Assembly (NCBI GenBank): GCA_963719085.1
Contig: CAVRAL010000004.1
Span: forward strand, 288,001 to 352,000
Length of the DNA: 64,000 bases
Direction of reading: 5' to 3'
DNA from: a candidate division FCPU426 bacterium
Lineage (GTDB): Bacteria; Oederibacteriota; Muellerivitia; Muellerivitales; Muellerivitaceae
Below the pieces are notes generated by a model. The model saw only the letters and a program-made list of their open reading frames with translations. It was not told where the DNA came from and searched no databases. Position numbers and translations under genes: made by a program. Positions within the stretch are counted from its first letter, which is position 1, and every line of letters starts with the position of its first letter. Positions 36,282 through 46,032 of this stretch are shown one piece after another.

Positions 36282-36355
36282 AAATCGACCAAGACCGGCC
36301 TCGAGGTTCAAAAACCTTAAGGTTTGGCCCTAAATCCTATTTGGAGGATATTTCA

Positions 36356-38785
36356 ATGAGATTCGTTTCCCGATGGTTTTGGCTTTTGTTTCTGTGTTGG
36401 GGTTTTAATGTAAGCGTCGCCCGCGCGACAGTTGACGGCGCCATTTCAGGCACCGTTTTGGATGACAAAGGCGTCGCGGTGCCCAACGCGAAGGTGACGA
36501 TTACGGGCAACGGCACTGAAAAGGACGTGGTGTCTTCAGCGACAGGAACTTTCCAGGCCTTTCCCTTAACCCTGGGGGATTACCAGGTTCAAGTTCAAGC
36601 GGACGGCTTTAGCCCCTATCAAGAAACCGTCGCGGTTTCGGGCGGCACCTCGTCCCTGGCGGTGGTCTTGCTGCCATCCGGTGAGATGCAAATGACGGTG
36701 AAAGCCAAACATCTGGTCTCCTCCGCGCCCGACAGCAGCCGGGCGTTAAATAAAGATGATATCGCCCAACTGCCGGGAGGCTCCACGACGAACCTTCCGA
36801 AATTGCTTTATACCACCACAGCCGGATTCGTGGAGGGTGACTTCGGGCAAGTCTTTACCCGGGGCAACCACGCCAACTTGCAATACCAGATCGACGGCAT
36901 CCAATTGCCCGATTCGGTGGGCGGCTCCTTTGGGGAAGCCTTCACCCCGGTCAACATCGACCACATGGAAATTTTAACCGGCGGCCTCCAGCCGGAGTTC
37001 GGTTCCCGCATGGCCGGCGTGGTGAATATCGTCACCAAGTCGGGCGCGATCACTCCCGGCGGTGAAATCGGCCTCAGCTACGGTTCCTACAACCAGACCG
37101 CCGATTACGCCAGCTACGGAGGGTCTGACGCCTCCGGAGCTTTTCATTACTACCTCTCGGCCAATTCCTTTTCCACCGACCGCGGGTTGGACACTCCCGC
37201 GCCGGCCGACATCAACGCCGACCAGAATGGCGGGAGCGAACAGGCGGTCCATGACAAAAGCTACGGCACGGACGCTTTCTTGAAGCTTGATTGGGTGGCG
37301 GACAACTCCAACAAGTTTGACCTGATCGCCTTCAGCGAGGACAAATTTTTCCAAATCCCGGACTATCCCAGTTCCTTTGATCCGGGCGGACCCAACTTCC
37401 AGTATTTCCTCAGTTCGGGGGATATCTACGGGAACGTCGTGAACTACGTTCCTTCCACCACCAACGACACCCAAGCCGAAGCCAACAAGTACATTGAATT
37501 AGCTTGGCGGCATAACTTCGGCGACGATTCTTTCCTTCAAATAGCGCCCTATTGGAAGGAATCCAACATCACCTTCACCAACGATCCGCAGGACGATCTG
37601 GCGGCGGCCTATAACACGCAGATCCAGGATCAGAACTCGGGGACGCCGTTCAGTATTTCCTCTTTCTCCGAGGACCGCACCAGCGACAACTATGGGACGC
37701 AGGCGGATTACACCTGGCACGCGGACGCCAACAACCTGGTCAAGATCGGGGGACAGGCCCTTTTGACGCAATCTTCCGGCCCCGTTTCCGTTACGGAAGC
37801 CAATTTTGACGGAACCCCGGGAGATCCGATCACGGTGGATGGCAGTGGGGATAATTCTACCGATGTGGGTTACCAAGAAGGCCTGTACGTCCAGGACGAA
37901 ATGGATCTGGCCAAGGGGCTGGTCTTAAGCGGGGGCGTGCGCTTTGACGCCATCCAATTTACCTTCCCGGGAGCGAATTCCAACGACAGCATGCTGGAAC
38001 CCCGGGTCGGCCTCAGCCTGCTTCCGGCCGAAGGTACCAAGATCCATTTCTTTTACGGCAAGATGTTCATGCCGGCCCCGCCGGAGGATCTGCGGGACAC
38101 CTTCGTCAATTTGGGCCAAGGGAACAGTTTGACGCCTTACGACCTCAAGGCCGAGAAGGACGATTATTTCGAAACCGGAATCGCCCAGCAGGTGGACAAC
38201 CAACTGTTCACCTTGAACGCTTACTACAAATACGCGTTGAATATGCTGGATGAAAACCAGCTTTTGAACACGGCTATCGCCCAACCCTTCAACTTCGCCT
38301 CCGGCTACGCCTATGGCCTTGAATTTTCCATGCGCGGGGAACTGGCCAAGGACTGGACTGATTTCGCCAATTATTCCTACGAGATCGCTAAGGGGCAGGG
38401 AATCAGCGGCGGTATCTTCGCCTTCCCCCCGGGGACCGATTTCGAACCTGGCGTCTACCAGTTCCTGGACCATTGCCAAATCCACACAGCCAACGCCGGA
38501 TTGACCTATAACCCCGGTGATATTTGGCTCACCGCCGAAGGTCTTTTTGGAGGGGGTTTGAGCACCGGCCCGGACAACACCTTGAGACTGCCGTCCCATT
38601 TCACCATGGACGCCACGGTGGGTTACGCCTTTCAGAAAGACAGCGGCCTATCAGGGATGAAAGCCAGCCTGGACGCGCTGAATCTCTTTGATAACCCCTA
38701 CACCATCTTCGTCGCCAATGGTTACAACGGGAATCATTACGAAAACGGACGGGAATTCATCTTCCGTTTGGCCAAGGTGTTCTAA
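36356..38785 (+). CDS. TonB-dependent receptor with N-terminal carboxypeptidase-regulatory-like domain
   Basis: GGAGGA RBS, signal peptide, plug motifs (YQIDG, GVVNIVTKSG), LEPRVG, NLFD and terminal Phe. Confidence 0.93.
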   Translation: MRFVSRWFWLLFLCWGFNVSVARATVDGAISGTVLDDKGVAVPNAKVTITGNGTEKDVVSSATGTFQAFPLTLGDYQVQVQADGFSPYQETVAVSGGTSSLAVVLLPSGEMQMTVKAKHLVSSAPDSSRALNKDDIAQLPGGSTTNLPKLLYTTTAGFVEGDFGQVFTRGNHANLQYQIDGIQLPDSVGGSFGEAFTPVNIDHMEILTGGLQPEFGSRMAGVVNIVTKSGAITPGGEIGLSYGSYNQTADYASYGGSDASGAFHYYLSANSFSTDRGLDTPAPADINADQNGGSEQAVHDKSYGTDAFLKLDWVADNSNKFDLIAFSEDKFFQIPDYPSSFDPGGPNFQYFLSSGDIYGNVVNYVPSTTNDTQAEANKYIELAWRHNFGDDSFLQIAPYWKESNITFTNDPQDDLAAAYNTQIQDQNSGTPFSISSFSEDRTSDNYGTQADYTWHADANNLVKIGGQALLTQSSGPVSVTEANFDGTPGDPITVDGSGDNSTDVGYQEGLYVQDEMDLAKGLVLSGGVRFDAIQFTFPGANSNDSMLEPRVGLSLLPAEGTKIHFFYGKMFMPAPPEDLRDTFVNLGQGNSLTPYDLKAEKDDYFETGIAQQVDNQLFTLNAYYKYALNMLDENQLLNTAIAQPFNFASGYAYGLEFSMRGELAKDWTDFANYSYEIAKGQGISGGIFAFPPGTDFEPGVYQFLDHCQIHTANAGLTYNPGDIWLTAEGLFGGGLSTGPDNTLRLPSHFTMDATVGYAFQKDSGLSGMKASLDALNLFDNPYTIFVANGYNGNHYENGREFIFRLAKVF

Positions 38786-38811
38786 AGCGAAAGGTTGGGT
38801 TTAAAAGCGAC

Positions 38812-38856
38812 AAGGCAGCGCCGGTTGGGTTCAGAGCCCAACCGGCATCTTGCCCT
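38812..38856 (+). terminator. Strong hairpin after the receptor gene
   Basis: GCCGGTTGGGTT-CAG-AGCCCAACCGGC with an outer GGCA/TGCC extension. No adjacent U tract on the plus strand; an A run follows. Confidence 0.45.
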
Positions 38857-38991
38857 TCTATAAAAAAATAAATTGATAGGCAGGTATCCCTTTAGGGGTT
38901 GCCGTTTTCAAAATCCAGATTCAGCGTCATTTTTGGGTACCACCCATATGACGCCGGATGTGGTTTTTGATAACAATCAAAAGGAAAAGAA

Positions 38992-39627
38992 ATGGAACAG
39001 ATTTTCGACGGTTTTAAATTTATCTTCCGGGGCGGCTTCATGATGCTTCCCCTGCTGGCCTCCTCCCTGATCGCCCTAACGGTCATCATCGATCGTTGGA
39101 AGGTTTTCCAAAAGCAATACAAGACGCCCGAGGGCTTCCTGCTCAGGGTGTTGAAAAAAATAAGGGAAGGCAACGTGGCTGAGGCCCAAAAGGATTGTGA
39201 TGGAAAGGCCTTCCCCGTAGCGGCGGTTTTGAAAGCGGGGATCACAAACCTCAAGAGTCCCGCCGCCGAAATGGAAATCGCCATGAAGAACGAGGCCGAA
39301 AGCTGGATTCCGGTTTTGGAAAAAAGGATTCATGTCCTGGATACCATCATCACCATCGCTCCCCTGATGGGCCTCTTGGGAACTATCCTGGGAATGATGG
39401 GCTCCTTCAAGGTGCTGACCCAAAGCGGGGTGGACGACCCCTATTCGATCACCGGCGGCATCGCCGAGGCCTTGATCGCCACGGCCACCGGCATCATCAT
39501 CGCCGTGCTTTGCGTGATCGCGATGAATTATTTCAACACCCTGGTCAAAAACCTGATTTACGAGATGGAGTCGGCGGCCTCCTACCTGCAGGAAACCCGC
39601 ATGGGCTTTGAACGGGGTAAAAAATAA
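38992..39627 (+). CDS. exbB: ExbB (MotA/TolQ/ExbB family)
   Basis: APLMGLLGTILGMM and GGIAEALIATATG. Confidence 0.92.
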   Translation: MEQIFDGFKFIFRGGFMMLPLLASSLIALTVIIDRWKVFQKQYKTPEGFLLRVLKKIREGNVAEAQKDCDGKAFPVAAVLKAGITNLKSPAAEMEIAMKNEAESWIPVLEKRIHVLDTIITIAPLMGLLGTILGMMGSFKVLTQSGVDDPYSITGGIAEALIATATGIIIAVLCVIAMNYFNTLVKNLIYEMESAASYLQETRMGFERGKK

Positions 39628-40037
39628 TGCAGGTACGGCAAAAACCCATCAAACGAATCCGGATTGAGATCATCCCCATGATCGACGTCATTTTTTTCCT
39701 GTTGGTTTTTTTCATGGTGACTTCCCTGGCCATGACCCGCATCAACAGCATCAAGGTAGTGCTCCCGAAGACTTCAGGAAAAGCGGAAAATCCCCGGCAG
39801 AACGTCATCTTGACGGTGAAAAAAGACGGCTCCCTGCTCATTAACAAAACGCCTGTGACCTTAGACACCTTGGGAAGCCAGTTGGTGAGCGTGATGCAGG
39901 CCGACCCCCAAGGCGTGGTCATCGTGAACGCCGACGAGGGCGCCCCCTATGGCCAAGTCGTTCAAGCCATGCAAAAGGCCAAGGACGCCGGAGTACGGAA
40001 ATTCGCGTTGGCCGCAGAAGCCGGGGAAGGAAAATAA
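39627..40037 (+). CDS. exbD: ExbD
   Basis: IIPMIDVIFFLLVFFMV; ADEGAPYG. Confidence 0.93.
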   Translation: MQVRQKPIKRIRIEIIPMIDVIFFLLVFFMVTSLAMTRINSIKVVLPKTSGKAENPRQNVILTVKKDGSLLINKTPVTLDTLGSQLVSVMQADPQGVVIVNADEGAPYGQVVQAMQKAKDAGVRKFALAAEAGEGK

Positions 40038-40039
40038 CC

Positions 40040-40615
40040 ATGCCGATAATCCGCCTGGATTCAAATACGGAACCTCTCGTCCGGTCAGCCGGACTCGCCA
40101 TCGGCGTGGAATTTCTTTTTTTTCTGGCTCTAGGGCTAGGTCATTTGTCCCTTTTTCATAACCGCTTCGACGACGCGGTGGATGCCCAAATCGTGCAGTT
40201 ATCCGACGCTCATTTGTCCGGAGCCCAAGCCACTAGTCCCGATGATGATGTGGTTTTTAACCCCCGGCACAAACCCAAGCCGGCCAAGAAACCAACCCCT
40301 CCCAAAACCGAGCAAAACCAAGTGGACGCGGGCCCAGACCTGGGGCCCACCCACGGGCCAGTCGCGCTCTACGCGCCCCAACCCGTCATCCCCTCCTATT
40401 TAAGGGATCAAAACCTGAAGACCAGCGTGGTGATTGAATTTTTGGTCACAGCGCAAGGCCAAGTCACTTGCCGGCTTTTGGAATCCAGCGGGAGCGACGA
40501 GCTCGACGCCTTGTCGATCCAAACCGCCGAAAAATGGCGGTTCAAGCCCGCCGCCCAGGACAATGTACCCCTCGATTCCAAAACCCGATTGCGCATTTTA
40601 TTTGAGGTGGATTAA
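40040..40615 (+). CDS. tonB: TonB energy transducer
   Basis: N-terminal TM, Pro/Lys linker and SSG.ELD...KWRFKPA TonB_C domain. Confidence 0.88.
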   Translation: MPIIRLDSNTEPLVRSAGLAIGVEFLFFLALGLGHLSLFHNRFDDAVDAQIVQLSDAHLSGAQATSPDDDVVFNPRHKPKPAKKPTPPKTEQNQVDAGPDLGPTHGPVALYAPQPVIPSYLRDQNLKTSVVIEFLVTAQGQVTCRLLESSGSDELDALSIQTAEKWRFKPAAQDNVPLDSKTRLRILFEVD

Positions 40616-40652
40616 CCCTGTTTTTCACTCAACCCATGGTCCGTCCGCCGGA

Positions 40653-40682
40653 TTGACAGTGCCAGCTCCGCCCTCTAATAAT
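40653..40682 (+). promoter_or_regulatory. Sigma70-type promoter TTGACA-N18-AATAAT
   Basis: Upstream of leader ORF 2; shares GCCCTC just before the -10 with the first promoter. Confidence 0.65.
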
Positions 40683-40710
40683 GGCCCCCATCCAGAACTG
40701 GAAGAGGGCC

Positions 40711-40998
40711 ATGCGCGGTTTCAAACGTTCTTTTTTAAGATGGGGAATTTTATTTTTCCTTCCCTTCCTGATTTCAATCATGACCGTGGAAACATCCCAC
40801 CATCACAGCCCTCTGGAACCCCAGGACAACTGCTCCATTTGTAGTTGCCAGCAAACTGGTTCCCAAGCCGCCACCTTGCCACTGCCGCCGACATTGCTTC
40901 CAACCTTTATCACGGGTTTATTACTTCTAACTTTTTCTTTTATCATTCCCCCGTCCCTCATATCCTCCACGGGCAGGTCCCCGCCCGTCCTCCTGTAA
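40711..40998 (+). CDS. DUF2946/CruR-like leader protein 2 (95 aa; HHH, CxxC, RSPP)
   Basis: GAAGAGG RBS, hydrophobic N-terminus, ETSHHH, CSIC and GRSPP; paralog of 35850..36137. Confidence 0.75.
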   Translation: MRGFKRSFLRWGILFFLPFLISIMTVETSHHHSPLEPQDNCSICSCQQTGSQAATLPLPPTLLPTFITGLLLLTFSFIIPPSLISSTGRSPPVLL

Positions 40999-41037
40999 TT
41001 TTTCGAGCCGTTTTGAAAAAATACACAGGAGGAATTC

Positions 41038-42144
41038 ATGAGAATTCATCGTTTTTATTTTATTTTGGCCTCCCTTTTGGGAGTGGCTTTCGCCGGGGGG
41101 GCCCAGGCCCAAACCCGGTCGATTATCTCCAACTTGGCCAATCCGGCCATCGGCATGAGCGCGTTGTTTTTGGGCCAAGCCGCGCCGAACATCGCCGCCC
41201 CCTACGGCATTAAATTCCAGGAAGCCGAATTGAGCGTCATCTCCACCGTGGATCCTTATTGGACCCTGGCCGCCAATTTGGTGTTTGAGGGCGATCCTAA
41301 AACCGGCATTCCCGACTCGGTGTCGGCGGAAGAAGCCTACGCCACCACCGACGCCATCCCGGGAATCACGTTCAAGATCGGGGAAATCCGGGCGGATTTC
41401 GGAAAACACGGACTGCTTCACACCCACGCTTTTCCCTTCATCCAAGCCCCCATCATCATGGGCAACAGCGTGGGCCAGGAAGGCTTCAAGGACGCGGGCG
41501 TGGAAGGCGCTTGGCTGACGCCCCTGCCTTGGTACTGCGAACTGACCCTGGGCGCCTACGGATCGGTGGCGGCCTCGGGCGACCATCCGCTGAATTTCGC
41601 CGACGCCTCGCACGACAATATTCCCTACCTGATCCATCTCAAAAATCTTTTCGACGTGGATGACGACACCACGATGGAATTAGGCGGATCGGCCCTGACC
41701 GGCATGGGTGACGACGGCCTGCACCACGCCGTTTATGGCGCGGACCTGACTTTCCGCAATGTGCCGCTTCAACAATCCAACCAACGGGGATGGATTCTGC
41801 AGGGCGAGTACATCAAAAAAGTTTCCTTTGATGACAACGCCTATAACCAGGAAGCGGACGGCTGGTATACCTCGTTCCAATATCGCTTGGCCCAGGAATG
41901 GTGGACCGGCATCCGGATGGAAGAGTGCTATAACGCCACACCGGACCTGGATGTGGACTCCACGGAAAATTCACTCGCCGGCAACGTCAAGCGCGCCTCG
42001 TTCAATGTGGCTTGGCTGGCGTCGGAATTTTCGCAGGTGAAGGCCGAATATAGCTACGCCCAAAACGACGCGGGCCAGGGCGATAACCGGGTGATGCTGC
42101 AGTTTAACTATGTGATCGGATTCCATCCGCCCCACTCTTATTAG
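41038..42144 (+). CDS. His-containing outer-membrane porin-like protein of a metal uptake operon
   Basis: AGGAGG RBS, signal peptide, NPAIG, HGLLHTHAFPF, SEFS and C-terminal IGFHPPHSY. Confidence 0.75.
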   Translation: MRIHRFYFILASLLGVAFAGGAQAQTRSIISNLANPAIGMSALFLGQAAPNIAAPYGIKFQEAELSVISTVDPYWTLAANLVFEGDPKTGIPDSVSAEEAYATTDAIPGITFKIGEIRADFGKHGLLHTHAFPFIQAPIIMGNSVGQEGFKDAGVEGAWLTPLPWYCELTLGAYGSVAASGDHPLNFADASHDNIPYLIHLKNLFDVDDDTTMELGGSALTGMGDDGLHHAVYGADLTFRNVPLQQSNQRGWILQGEYIKKVSFDDNAYNQEADGWYTSFQYRLAQEWWTGIRMEECYNATPDLDVDSTENSLAGNVKRASFNVAWLASEFSQVKAEYSYAQNDAGQGDNRVMLQFNYVIGFHPPHSY

Positions 42145-42195
42145 GACGGAGCGGATTCAAAAAATTTGTGGTTTAAAAAATCAAGGAGAAAACTC

Positions 42196-43110
42196 ATGAA
42201 ACGTCTAAGCGCTTTTTTAGTGCTGCTCTTCGGTTGCTTGATCGCCTTGCCGGCTTTCGCGGATTTGAAAGTGGCCACCTCCCTTTCAGATTTGGCGTCG
42301 GTGGCCCAATTCGTGGGAGGCAAACACGTCACGGCCATCAGCCTTTGCAAAGGTTATGAGGACCCGCATTTTGTCCCGGCCAAACCCAGTTTGATGAAGG
42401 CCATCCAGGACGCCGATGTATTCGTGTCCGTGGGGCTGGAGTTGGACGGGGGCTGGCTGCCCTTGGTCATCCCCGGGAGCCGCAATCCCAAAATTCAGCC
42501 GGGCGCCGAAGGCTTCGTTGACGCCTCGGAAGGCATTGATGTTTTGGATAAGCCCGTCGGCACCGTCAGCCGGGCGGAGGGGGACATCCATCCTTTGGGC
42601 AACCCGCATTACTATGGCGACCCGAAAAATCTGGAAATCGTGGCGGATCATTTGACCCAAATTTTTTCGGATTTGGACCCGGCCAACGCGGCGGACTACG
42701 CGGCCAACGATAAGGCCTTCGACGCGAAAATGGACGCGTCGATCAAGGGCTGGGAGGCTCAGCTGGCTCCTTATAAGGGAAATTCGCTCGTGTCCTACCA
42801 CGAGAATTTCAAGTATTTCACCAACCGGTTTGGCTTGAAGGTTTTCGGAACCGTGGAGTCCAAGCCCGGCATTCCGCCGAGCCCCCGATACCTATCGGAC
42901 ACGGCCGACGCGATGAAAACCGCCGGAGTGAAGGTCGTTATCTACCAGCCTTACTATGACGCCGACGAGGCCAAGCAATTAGCGTTGAAAGCCGGGGCCA
43001 CCGCCTATGAGATTCCTAATGAAGTGGGCGGCGTTCCGGAGGCCAAGGACGTTTTCTCGAAATTCGACTTCATCGTGTCGACTTTAGTTCAAGCCTACGG
43101 GGGAAAATAA
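42196..43110 (+). CDS. Zn/Mn-type metal ABC substrate-binding protein (ZnuA family)
   Basis: DPHF, GLELD, HPLGNPHY, YH, ESKPGIPPSP. Confidence 0.92.
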   Translation: MKRLSAFLVLLFGCLIALPAFADLKVATSLSDLASVAQFVGGKHVTAISLCKGYEDPHFVPAKPSLMKAIQDADVFVSVGLELDGGWLPLVIPGSRNPKIQPGAEGFVDASEGIDVLDKPVGTVSRAEGDIHPLGNPHYYGDPKNLEIVADHLTQIFSDLDPANAADYAANDKAFDAKMDASIKGWEAQLAPYKGNSLVSYHENFKYFTNRFGLKVFGTVESKPGIPPSPRYLSDTADAMKTAGVKVVIYQPYYDADEAKQLALKAGATAYEIPNEVGGVPEAKDVFSKFDFIVSTLVQAYGGK

Positions 43111-43115
43111 GCGCC

Positions 43116-43940
43116 ATGTCCAACTTTATCGAGGTGATGGGTCTTCCGATTTTGGCCTGCTTGCTCCTCGGCCTCATCCTGCCCTCCTTGGGCCAGCATG
43201 TGCTGGCCCGGGGAGTCATTTTCGTGGACTTGGCCTTGGCTCAAATAGCGGCGCTGGGACAAAGCGTGGCCTTTTTGTTGGGGGCCGACCCCCATGATCC
43301 GGCCACCTACTATTGGTCCCTGGGATTCACCCTATTGGGCGCGGCCCTTTTTAGTTTTTTGTGGGACCGCAACCATTCGGTTTTTCAGGAGGCCTTTATC
43401 GGAATCGCCTTCTCCCTGGCGACGGCGGCCACCCTGTTGGTCTTGTCCAATTCCCCCCACGGCGCCGAGCACGTGCAGGGAACCTTGAGCGGGGAAAGCC
43501 TGGGCTGGGTCGCTTGGAAAGACGTGGCGCTGATGGCGGTCATTTACGCCCTCGTCGGCCTGTTTCTTTTTTTCAACCGCCAGACCTTGGCGCTTTGTTC
43601 CGCCGACCCCAAAGAGGCCCAAAAGCAGGGACTGTCCCTGAAACTTTGGGATTTCCTTTTTTACGCGGGCTTCGGGCTGGTCGTGACCGACGCGGTTCGG
43701 GTTTCGGGCGTGCTGGCGGTCTTTTCGTTTCTGATCGTGCCGATCGTCTGTTCGACCCTTTTGGGCATGAAAGGAAGACCGCGGCTTTACCTGGCCTGGG
43801 GATTGGCGTGGCTGGCTTCGATCATCGGGTCCGGGTTTTCCTATTGGAAGGACTGGCCCATGGGCGCCACCATCGTGTGCGTATTCGGGCTATCGGTGAT
43901 TGTTATCTCGGCCTTCACAAGAATGAGAAACGTCGAATAG
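43116..43940 (+). CDS. Metal ABC permease (ABC-3/ZnuB family)
   Basis: RGVIFVDLALAQIAALG and GVLAVFSFLIVP. Confidence 0.88.
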   Translation: MSNFIEVMGLPILACLLLGLILPSLGQHVLARGVIFVDLALAQIAALGQSVAFLLGADPHDPATYYWSLGFTLLGAALFSFLWDRNHSVFQEAFIGIAFSLATAATLLVLSNSPHGAEHVQGTLSGESLGWVAWKDVALMAVIYALVGLFLFFNRQTLALCSADPKEAQKQGLSLKLWDFLFYAGFGLVVTDAVRVSGVLAVFSFLIVPIVCSTLLGMKGRPRLYLAWGLAWLASIIGSGFSYWKDWPMGATIVCVFGLSVIVISAFTRMRNVE

Positions 43941-44482: not shown

Positions 44483-44884
44483 TTAAAGCCCTAAAAATAA
44501 TTTCAATCGACGGCGAATTTCATCTCTTACTTCCTGGAAGCTTTTTAGCTTTTCTTCATCCGTCGTGGCTCCCTTTCCAGGGTCGGGCAGCGGCCAATGA
44601 ATTCTTTCAGCCTTCCCTAAGAAAACTGGACATTCTTCCTCGGCGCAAAGGGTGATAACCGTATCCACCGTCGCCGGGTCGATCTCGGCCACGGACTTGG
44701 AAGTCTGGCCGGAAATATCGATTCCGATTTCGGCCAGGGCCTTGATTGATAAAGGATTCACGAAAGACGGCTTGGAACCGGCGCTTTGAATCAGGCCTTT
44801 ATCGCCCAAAAGATGCTTGGCGATGCCTTCCGCCATCTGGCTGCGGCCCGAATTGGCCACACAAAGAAAAAGAATTTTTTTCAA
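44483..44884 (-). CDS. arsC: Arsenate reductase ArsC (thioredoxin-coupled, LMW-PTP fold)
   Basis: [13 protein letters not shown] (CX5R), [17 protein letters not shown]. Confidence 0.88.
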
Positions 44885-44887
44885 GGC

Positions 44888-45571
44888 CTACTCCTTGTTG
44901 TTTTTCAAGTTGGCGGGCGCCAGCCGGATCGACTCATAAAACAACGCGGCAAGAACCGCCCCAAGACAAGGCCCTACCACATAAATCCACGTCCCATTCA
45001 AATGTCCCTCAAAGACCGCGGGGGCCAGGGACCGTGCCGGATTCATGGAAGCCCCCGTGACCGGCCCACCCACCCAGGCCGCTAGCATGACAGTTCCGCC
45101 AATCGCCGCGCCCGCCATGGTGCCGACCGCGCGGGTATCCGTGGCCACCGCCACAATCACGAACATCAGAAAAAAGGTCAGGATCATTTCCCAGCTCAAA
45201 GCTTGCCCATTCGGCACGGCGGGAATGGTGGCTCCATAAGAAACACCGGATGGAAGAATCATTTTGAGGATGCCGATAGCGGCAAAAGCCCCGATGAGTT
45301 GAGCGGCCCAATAGGCCAAAACCTGCTCAAAGGGAAAGTGGCGGGCTACGGCGAAGGCCAAGGTCACGGCGGGATTGAAGTGGGCTCCCGAAATATGCCC
45401 CACCGCGTAAATCATGACCGCCACCGCCAACCCAAAAATAACCGGTACGACCGCCTGCGAAAGGGTCCCCGGAAACCGCTCCGCGACCATGAGGCTTCCG
45501 CATCCGGCGAAGACGAGGGTAAAGGTCCCCATGGCCTCGGCCAGGGACTTCTTAAGAAGGATATTCTTCAT
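44888..45571 (-). CDS. MIP family aquaporin, NIP-like (probable arsenite channel)
   Basis: GHISGAHFNPAVT and GASMNPARS NPA boxes; VATDTRAVG resembles plant NIPs; adjacent to arsC. Confidence 0.9.
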   Translation of the reverse strand: MKNILLKKSLAEAMGTFTLVFAGCGSLMVAERFPGTLSQAVVPVIFGLAVAVMIYAVGHISGAHFNPAVTLAFAVARHFPFEQVLAYWAAQLIGAFAAIGILKMILPSGVSYGATIPAVPNGQALSWEMILTFFLMFVIVAVATDTRAVGTMAGAAIGGTVMLAAWVGGPVTGASMNPARSLAPAVFEGHLNGTWIYVVGPCLGAVLAALFYESIRLAPANLKNNKE

Positions 45572-45607
45572 CTCCAACTAGCTCGCGTTTGCAAGTTGAT
45601 CCCCCTA

Positions 45608-45982
45608 TTACTTTTTCTTCCCCACCCACTCGCCCAAAACCGACTTCAATTTCTTTTTCATGCCCTGAAGTTCCTGGATTTTCCCCTCAAACTCATCGAT
45701 CTTGGCGGTGAACAAGTCCACCGTCAGGTCGCAACAGGGGCCCAGACCCTTGTCCCCGCAACAGGTGATTTTCTTTATTTCTTTGAGCGTCAGCCCCATG
45801 GCTTGGGCTTTGCGGATGAACTCCAATTGGTCCACCGCTTCCTTGGGATAAATCCGAAAGCCGCCTTCGCTCCGGGAAGGCTCGTTCAGCAGCCCCTCTT
45901 TTTCGTAATAGCGGATCGTATCGATGGACGTCCCGCTTTTTTGGGCCACTTGACCGATTTGAAGGAATGGATTTTTTTTCAT
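45608..45982 (-). CDS. MerR-family transcriptional regulator with CC...CC motif
   Basis: IGQVA..TIRYYEKEGLL..RSEGGFRIY..FIRKAQAMGLTLKEI; TCCGDKGLGPCCD. Confidence 0.92.
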   Translation of the reverse strand: MKKNPFLQIGQVAQKSGTSIDTIRYYEKEGLLNEPSRSEGGFRIYPKEAVDQLEFIRKAQAMGLTLKEIKKITCCGDKGLGPCCDLTVDLFTAKIDEFEGKIQELQGMKKKLKSVLGEWVGKKK

Positions 45983-46000
45983 GGCGTCAGCTCCCAAACG

Positions 46001-46032
46001 AGTATAGACCCTGGAGTATACTCCAGAGTCAA
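46001..46032 (-). promoter_or_regulatory. MerR-type promoter/operator TTGACT-N20-TATACT with dyad
   Basis: Minus strand TTGACT CTGGAGTATACTCCAGGGTC TATACT; perfect 16-bp palindrome CTGGAGTATACTCCAG in the long spacer. Confidence 0.9.

Follow-up and report, generated by a model that had tools for sequence, protein, structure and literature searches.

Gene Content of the Locus

The window (the whole 64,000-nucleotide stretch of DNA analyzed here) carries on its minus strand a short arsenic-type operon comprising a merR-like regulator (P0001; positions 45608–45982, ATG at 45982, 124 amino acids) that scores above the Pfam cut-offs for MerR_1, MerR, and MerR-DNA-bind, a NIP-like aquaporin (44888–45577) that scores above the TIGR00861 (MIP) cut-off and has two NPA motifs, and an arsC gene (44483–44884) whose product belongs to the LMW-phosphatase fold (LMWPc) with a C-x5-R P-loop and a C-x4-C redox pair. 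The three genes are co-directional, separated by gaps of 30 nt and then 3 nt, and no ArsR/SmtB gene was found within the window using two profiles. ORF and profile calls thus bear out the initial annotation, which had described co-directional merR-like, aquaporin, and arsC genes with no arsR in the window.

The closest solved structure to the aquaporin is that of the plant channel NIP2-1 (E = 2e-55), with AqpZ a far weaker match (about 1e-28). NIP2-1 carries arsenite, and the sequence suggests that the aquaporin is likely an arsenite channel with an AqpS-like role. The best PDB match of the window ArsC is arsenate reductase 1jl3 (E = 3e-30), with which all three of its catalytic cysteines align, at a spacing two residues shorter. 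Its top NCBIfam family is thioredoxin arsenate reductase, the type of the pI258 family, at 119 bits, under the cut-off of 174, and two further arsC genes of the clade described below also fall under the cut-off (138–140 bits). In another genome of the family (G051), an ArsR-led ars operon encodes an ArsC that shares 79% identity with that of the window.

By the same two profiles, the host genome (G000, 99% complete) has four ArsR-family genes outside the window, none of which has an ars neighbor within the listed 5-kb flanks. As regulators of the ars operon these four were rejected, having zero to two cysteines, no C-V/A-C triad, and neighbors other than ars genes. An ArsR-family protein with a CGDC motif (G000:C5:203311–203622) is encoded divergently from a thioredoxin gene and a quinone oxidoreductase-like gene, and is possibly a redox sensor. 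The exporter gene acr3 was not found in the host genome.

The plus strand of the window at 36341–43940 encodes a TonB-dependent receptor, ExbB, ExbD, TonB, an unclassified exported protein of 368 amino acids, and a ZnuA/ZnuB-like pair, with a small His/Cys ORF (40681–40998) inside it. These genes probably form a locus for the uptake of zinc or manganese, which runs toward the ars operon. We considered its zinc/manganese ABC uptake genes as targets of the regulator and rejected them, as they are convergent with the ars operon and without an operator.

The Regulator Protein

P0001 contains only four cysteines (C74, C75, C83, and C84, in TCCGDKGLGPCCD), has no histidine, and terminates in WVGKKK. 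Arranged as C74-C75-x7-C83-C84 (45731–45763, minus strand), the cysteine cluster spans the hinge between helices 4 and 5 and is the predicted As(III) site. There is no cysteine beyond position 84, and the protein has no metal-binding loop at its C-terminus, so that the sequence agrees with the earlier reading of a CC-x7-CC regulator ending in WVGKKK without this loop.

In Bacillus MerR, Hg is bound through C79, C114′, and C123′ (PMC4551924). HMMER alignment to the Bacillus megaterium structure 4ua1 places C83 at C79, and the helix register places C84 there, with C79 to C114 and C84 to W119 each spanning 35 residues; W119 thereby stands at the position of C114, the second MerR cysteine ligand. 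The N-terminal cysteine of helix 5 found in the Hg-MerR, CadR/PbrR, and ZntR subfamilies is accordingly kept in P0001. One cysteine is therefore canonical, neither loop ligand remains, and C75 and the second vicinal cysteine are new. The initial proposal of a relocated metal site needs amending in this respect: the loop ligands are indeed gone, but one of C83 and C84 is the canonical helix-5 ligand.

All NCBIfam subfamily scores are below cut-off, at 88–91 bits for ZntR (cut-offs 143–168), 89 for CadR/PbrR (151), 89 for MerR, 80 for CueR, and 50 for NmlR (175), with the ZntR, CadR, and MerR profiles scoring highest. The ArsR-family profiles HTH_5 and NF033788 gave no match to P0001. A MerR fold is present in the AlphaFold2 monomer (mean pLDDT 84), comprising a winged helix-turn-helix and a long helix (residues 85–120), with C74 and C75 in helix 66–78 and C83 and C84 just before helix 85–120. 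The three cysteines that are invariant among homologs lie within 10 residues at the hinge, the weak part of the model (pLDDT 66–72). Foldseek assigned a probability of 1.00 to CadR, PbrR, CueR, and MerR, the best matches being CadR and PbrR (6jyw, 5gpe; TM 0.74), which have three-thiolate sites for soft ions. CadR and PbrR carry two loop cysteines, both of which are missing in P0001.

Promoter and Operator

A −35 hexamer (TTGACT, 46027–46032, minus strand) and a −10 hexamer (TATACT, 46001–46006, minus strand) precede the regulator gene at a distance of 20 bp, and the spacer is filled by an inverted repeat conserved in the clade (operator, 46007–46030) with a perfect 16-bp palindromic core (CTGGAGTA/TACTCCAG, 46011–46026). 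This palindrome inside a 20-bp −35/−10 spacer is a trait of canonical MerR activators and is present in all 32 of the loop-less loci listed (see below), each of which has TTGA(C/T)N at the same place. The 32-base promoter (46001–46032, minus strand) matches PzntA, the Escherichia coli zntA promoter, at 27 of 32 bases. A sigma-70 scan with spacers of 16–18 bp returned no promoter here, as expected for a 20-bp spacer; canonical MerR promoters have spacers of 19–20 bp (PMC11672702), and such over-long spacers need activation by distortion (PMC9909328).

Within the window the operator pattern occurs at this site only (two overlapping strand matches, with 0.01 expected by chance), a match that speaks to uniqueness and not to independent discovery, the pattern having been drawn from these same sites. 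A weight matrix built from the 32 clade promoters identified two sites in the 3.04-Mb host genome, one before each of its merR–ars copies and both part of the training set, which scored 48.5 and 43.4 (the first site read in reverse, 24.7; the score after these, 9.4). The predicted regulon therefore consists of the two ars operons only, and in the same scan no metal pump of the host genome has the operator. A search of sequencing runs listed no RNA run with this sequence. The second copy (G000:C4:476417–478351; L007) has its own operator and reads merR (476466, 82% identical)–arsI/cadI–aquaporin–arsC; an ORF judged by eye to be chromate-transporter-like lies ∼1 kb beyond it on the other strand.

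Homologs and Cysteine Conservation

Among the best 120 of 135 homologs found, the C-terminal loop is missing from 92; each of these loop-less proteins has C75, C83, and C84, and 70 of them have C74. The conserved unit is consequently the triad C75/C83/C84 and not the two vicinal pairs that had been annotated. The rest of the 120 comprise three truncated proteins, 22 that combine the helix-5 CC with a C-terminal VCPQ cysteine, and three without such a CC. The triad also occurs in 9 of the 21–22 VCPQ-type relatives listed, 13 being without C75. A profile search of 1.84 billion representatives showed the group to be small: 65 proteins reached E = 1e-30 or better, and the CC types, found at the top, were few. 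The wider profile search contributed three more VCPQ-type relatives with C75, C83, C84, and a C-terminal cysteine, as well as P0126, in which the CC is present but C75 and a tail are not; it may be a truncated protein of the VCPQ type. In plasmids, 853 records matched, all at less than 60% identity (best 47%), and no clade member was among the matches listed.

In a tree of 67 rows using all columns, the loop-less proteins form one branch (support 99/95, with the bootstrap not fully settled) inside a CC group that also holds the VCPQ proteins (100/99). When the cysteine loop and tail were removed and three long outgroup rows dropped, the loop-less branch had an SH-aLRT of 84. The loop-less and VCPQ proteins are each other's closest relatives in the sample. 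As a tree with the VCPQ proteins in a clade of their own was not rejected by an AU test (p = 0.82), we do not claim that the loop-less clade derives from this mer-linked group. On genome contigs both groups were seen in uncultured bacteria only, including Ca. Firestonebacteria and Ca. Omnitrophota, and the system is, in these data, confined to uncultured lineages.

The VCPQ regulators have the helix-5 CC, a tryptophan where MerR has C114, and a single C-terminal cysteine. Their loci (L017, L018, L021, L022, L094, L096, L098, and L099) share the same operator, and none of the eight has ars genes. Instead, their neighbors include merT/merC-like, GDCCVxC, thioredoxin-like, and CopZ-like genes, with merC- or merT-like genes in seven of the eight loci and the contig ending in the eighth; four of these merT/merC-like genes are above the Pfam cut-off and all those tested are below the NCBIfam cut-offs. 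The VCPQ regulators apparently represent a rewired Hg or soft-metal site. Those VCPQ relatives that bear the triad and have genomic context (L017, L018, L021, and L099) adjoin merT/merC-like genes, and the triad alone is therefore no proof of arsenic selectivity.

Gene Neighborhood of the Loop-Less Clade

Loci were collected from genome contigs and metagenome contigs (best 80 each) and from host-phylum genomes, giving at least 32 distinct loop-less loci after seven genome-contig loci that are host-phylum contigs were counted once; L100, which is frameshifted, was kept among the 32, and the truncated L125 was set aside. Within the host phylum the regulator is present in 23 of 99 genomes, including 21 of the 30 others in the family, the one genome of a sister family, and none elsewhere. 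Translated searches (tblastn) showed that in 32 of the 32 loop-less loci listed the regulator gene is followed immediately, on its own strand, by an ars gene, so that the neighbors of the CC homologs, whose tabulation had been suggested as a check of the initial annotation, are uniformly ars-linked in this clade. The loci are mostly from one bacterial family and hence are not independent.

The cargo of the 32 loci listed comprises arsC in 30, aquaporin in 21, acr3 in 10, arsI in 10, and arsM in 5, with arsenite exporters in 31, and the two loci without arsC end at a contig edge. Of these, 4 of the 10 acr3, 2 of the 5 arsM, and 4 of the 10 arsI genes were compared with NCBIfam, and every one of them scored above cut-off. 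Next to other MerR genes no ars gene was found in any of the 118 loci with at least 500 nt downstream, out of 137 more distant controls. An ars-type match was present somewhere near 9 of the 137 control MerR loci (L024, L056, L101, L153, L077, L033, L040, L050, and L081), and four of the six inspected (L024, L056, L101, and L153) have an ArsR-like gene of their own. The link in L077 was rejected because the match looks like a generic methyltransferase, and that in L033 because its acr3 lies upstream and is unlinked in operon order.

Alternation with ArsR

Nine genomes of the family lack the MerR, and six of these (G051, G052, G053, G057, G061, and G064) have an ArsR of the C-V-C type by one query in the host order, compared with none of the 23 MerR-carrying genomes by this single ArsR query; these counts cover the C-V-C type of ArsR and come from genomes that are kin, some of them incomplete (63–99%). 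Weak matches to the query (34–38%) are other ArsR-family proteins. By these queries G058, G059, and G071 have neither the MerR nor the C-V-C ArsR. In four of the MerR-lacking family members (G051, G052, G053, and G057) the C-V-C ArsR heads acr3 operons which, with enough sequence, read arsM–(arsC)–acr3, the contig of G061 being too short. No MerR operator box is present at the ArsR-led loci. The cargo is shared between the two kinds of operon: proteins of the ArsR-led operon of G051 are 70% (ArsM), 91% (Acr3), and 84% and 85% (two ArsC) identical to those of a MerR-led operon. Fifteen acr3 regions of other families (3–8 kb each) include five with an ArsR-like gene and none with a loop-less MerR.

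Taken together with the shared cargo, the alternation speaks more strongly than any other finding for the MerR doing the work of ArsR. The initial annotation had proposed that a subfamily of MerR, rather than ArsR, has control of the ars operon to which it belongs, and this part of the proposal is strongly supported by context, namely the linkage in 32 of 32 loci, the promoter, and the alternation.

Proposed Mechanism and Alternatives

We conclude that the MerR very probably stands in for ArsR as the regulator of ars operons, and consider it likely that P0001 does so as an arsenite-sensing activator, encoded first in its own ars operon behind a promoter with a 20-bp spacer. The genes, promoter, conservation, linkage, and alternation are observed here, and we infer the ligand, the three-cysteine site, and activation. 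The mechanism we favor, as the most probable one, is arsenite sensing by the hinge cysteine triad. Under this mechanism, a MerR dimer would stay on the palindrome between −35 and −10, leaving the over-long promoter nearly silent, while ArsC would reduce arsenate to arsenite. Three thiolates from a single subunit, those of C75 where helix 4 ends and of C83/C84 where helix 5 begins, would then bind As(III), which by bridging C75 to C83/C84 would clamp the hinge, on which the angle of the DNA-binding domain depends, and re-orient the DNA-binding domains. The spacer would thereby be kinked and underwound and merR–aqp–arsC switched on, and arsenite would leave the cell through the NIP-type channel, down its gradient.

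Published work on other regulators makes parts of this scheme plausible. Three As(III)-sensing types of ArsR use three cysteines each, one of them as CCx5C (PMC11672702). In Bacillus MerR, the H4–H5 loop that carries C79 turns from loop to helix upon binding of the metal (Hg), and the two hinges are, as inferred from that account, at opposite ends of the coiled coil, so that the three-cysteine site is predicted to lie within one subunit (PMC4551924). In CueR the signal is reported to run to the hinge loop, and NmlR and AdhR are MerR proteins without a C-terminal sensor that rely on cysteines near the hinge (PMC5001606).

A fuller evolutionary scenario, toward which we lean only slightly, is that a branch of MerR became an arsenite-specific activator by dropping the two-subunit loop and gaining a single-subunit As-S3 site at the hinge, with ArsR displaced family-wide; the variable cysteine may tune the protein to methylarsenite in operons with arsI.

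A broad sensor of soft metals (Hg, Cd, Pb, or Zn) or a promiscuous thiophile sensor, inherited from relatives of the mer type and coupled to ars genes, for which arsenite is a weak inducer or none, appears unlikely. The nearest relatives adjoin merT/merC-like genes, the promoter shares 27 of 32 positions with PzntA, the target of ZntR, and the top profiles (ZntR, CadR, and MerR) and folds (CadR and PbrR) are those of such sensors. However, both C-terminal ligands of these sensors are gone, no metal pump with the operator is present in the host genome, and cargo is swapped only among arsenic genes in the 32 loci listed. Furthermore, the same operator is used in the mer-linked sister group and by distant MerR proteins and therefore reflects the DNA-binding domain, which argues against a soft-metal sensor.

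Vicinal cysteines can form disulfides, and a thiol or redox sensor resembling NmlR/AdhR would sense arsenic indirectly, its hinge cysteines being oxidized or modified under the thiol stress that arsenic causes. We regard such a sensor as rather improbable. NmlR and AdhR (HiNmlR, 5d8c/5d90) likewise have hinge-near cysteines and no C-terminal sensor, but NmlR responds to formaldehyde, binds no metal, and recognizes repeats that flank the −35 element, whereas the operator here is in the long spacer, and its defining helix-3 residue Cys54 (PMC5001606) is missing in P0001, which has no cysteine before position 74. The NmlR profile scores only 50 bits against a cut-off of 175, and aldehyde- or thiol-repair genes were not seen among the first downstream genes. 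The regulator also alternates with an ArsR of the direct As(III)-sensing type.

Two-cysteine ArsRs prefer methylarsenite. It is nevertheless very unlikely that induction is in truth due to methylarsenite or antimonite, held by the vicinal pair C83–C84 with help from C74–C75, in place of inorganic arsenite in a three-thiol site. The genes arsI and arsM are frequent cargo, and arsI is found only with C74 (10 of 21 loci with C74 and 0 of 11 without it; raw Fisher p = 0.006), an association that is not significant on independent pairs (three pairs, p = 0.5–1). Against this ligand, arsC is present in 30 and arsenite exporters in 31 of the 32 loci listed, and C75 is as invariant as C83 and C84. Least credible is an arsenite sensor that works by plain autorepression, dissociating from the DNA and not activating by distorting it. 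This would fit the replacement of a repressor (ArsR) and the loss of the loop at the C-terminus through which CueR and MerR relay the signal, but not the 20-bp spacer kept in 32 of 32 promoters listed, which needs distortion (PMC9909328).

Relation to Known Systems

Several known systems come close to the arsenite-sensing activator that we propose. The Hg(II)-responsive MerR of B. megaterium (4ua1) is the best PDB sequence match (E = 1.6e-21) and has the same fold with the helix-5 cysteine in register, whereas P0001 has a tryptophan at C114, no C123 loop, and the extra C75 and CC pair; its predicted site is in one subunit and its cargo is ars instead of mer. The E. coli ZntR/zntA system has in common with the present one the 20-bp spacer, 27 of 32 promoter bases, and the top NCBIfam score, but the CCx3Hx4C loop of ZntR (PMC11672702) is absent here and the targets are arsenic genes with no P1B ATPase. 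The ArsR of Acidithiobacillus ferrooxidans (CCx5C) likewise has a three-cysteine site with a vicinal pair, in an unrelated fold (PMC11672702), and the arsR–aqpS–arsC operon of Sinorhizobium meliloti has the same aquaporin and ArsC cargo (PMC6205960). ArsR relieves repression by leaving the DNA, whereas the regulator described here is predicted to stay bound when it activates.

Where ars operons are concerned, the direct sensing of As(III) is credited to ArsR/SmtB repressors. Our searches of the MerR and arsenic literature, with most subscription papers outside their reach, did not find an arsenic-sensing MerR, nor did a search by lineage name bring up a relevant paper. No arsenic signal is listed for MerR proteins in the accessible text of two reviews (PMC11672702 and PMC9909328, the latter without arsenic terms), and “MerR” is absent from the text of PMC6205960 and PMC4435449. 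Slr0701 was rejected as a precedent, since it regulates in response to mercury and arsenic terms are absent from the paper's text (PMC6741143).

If the proposed function is correct, arsenic sensing originated independently on an activator scaffold, adding arsenic to the known signals of MerR proteins, and a ligand held at the hinge without a C-terminal loop would be a new allosteric route. The mer-linked sister group, one or two cysteine positions apart, would provide a natural pair for contrasting As(III) and Hg(II) thiol geometry. An activator of this kind could give arsenic biosensors with low background, and genome annotation based on ArsR would miss the regulator of MerR-led ars operons.

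Other Genes near the Operons

Several further genes recur at these loci. Directly after the VCPQ-type merR there is a conserved ORF of 57 amino acids with the motif CPACGACP (L017:1640–1810, L018:6444–6614, L021:6426–6596, and L094:728–898), of which the L017 copy has no Pfam or NCBIfam match. In operons led by MerR as well as in those led by ArsR, the last arsC is followed by a gene of the C_GCAxxG_C_C family (L197, L199, and L249). In L207, L209, L210, L212, L213, and L092, the operon lies just upstream of squalene/phytoene-synthase-like genes, confirmed by Pfam in L213.
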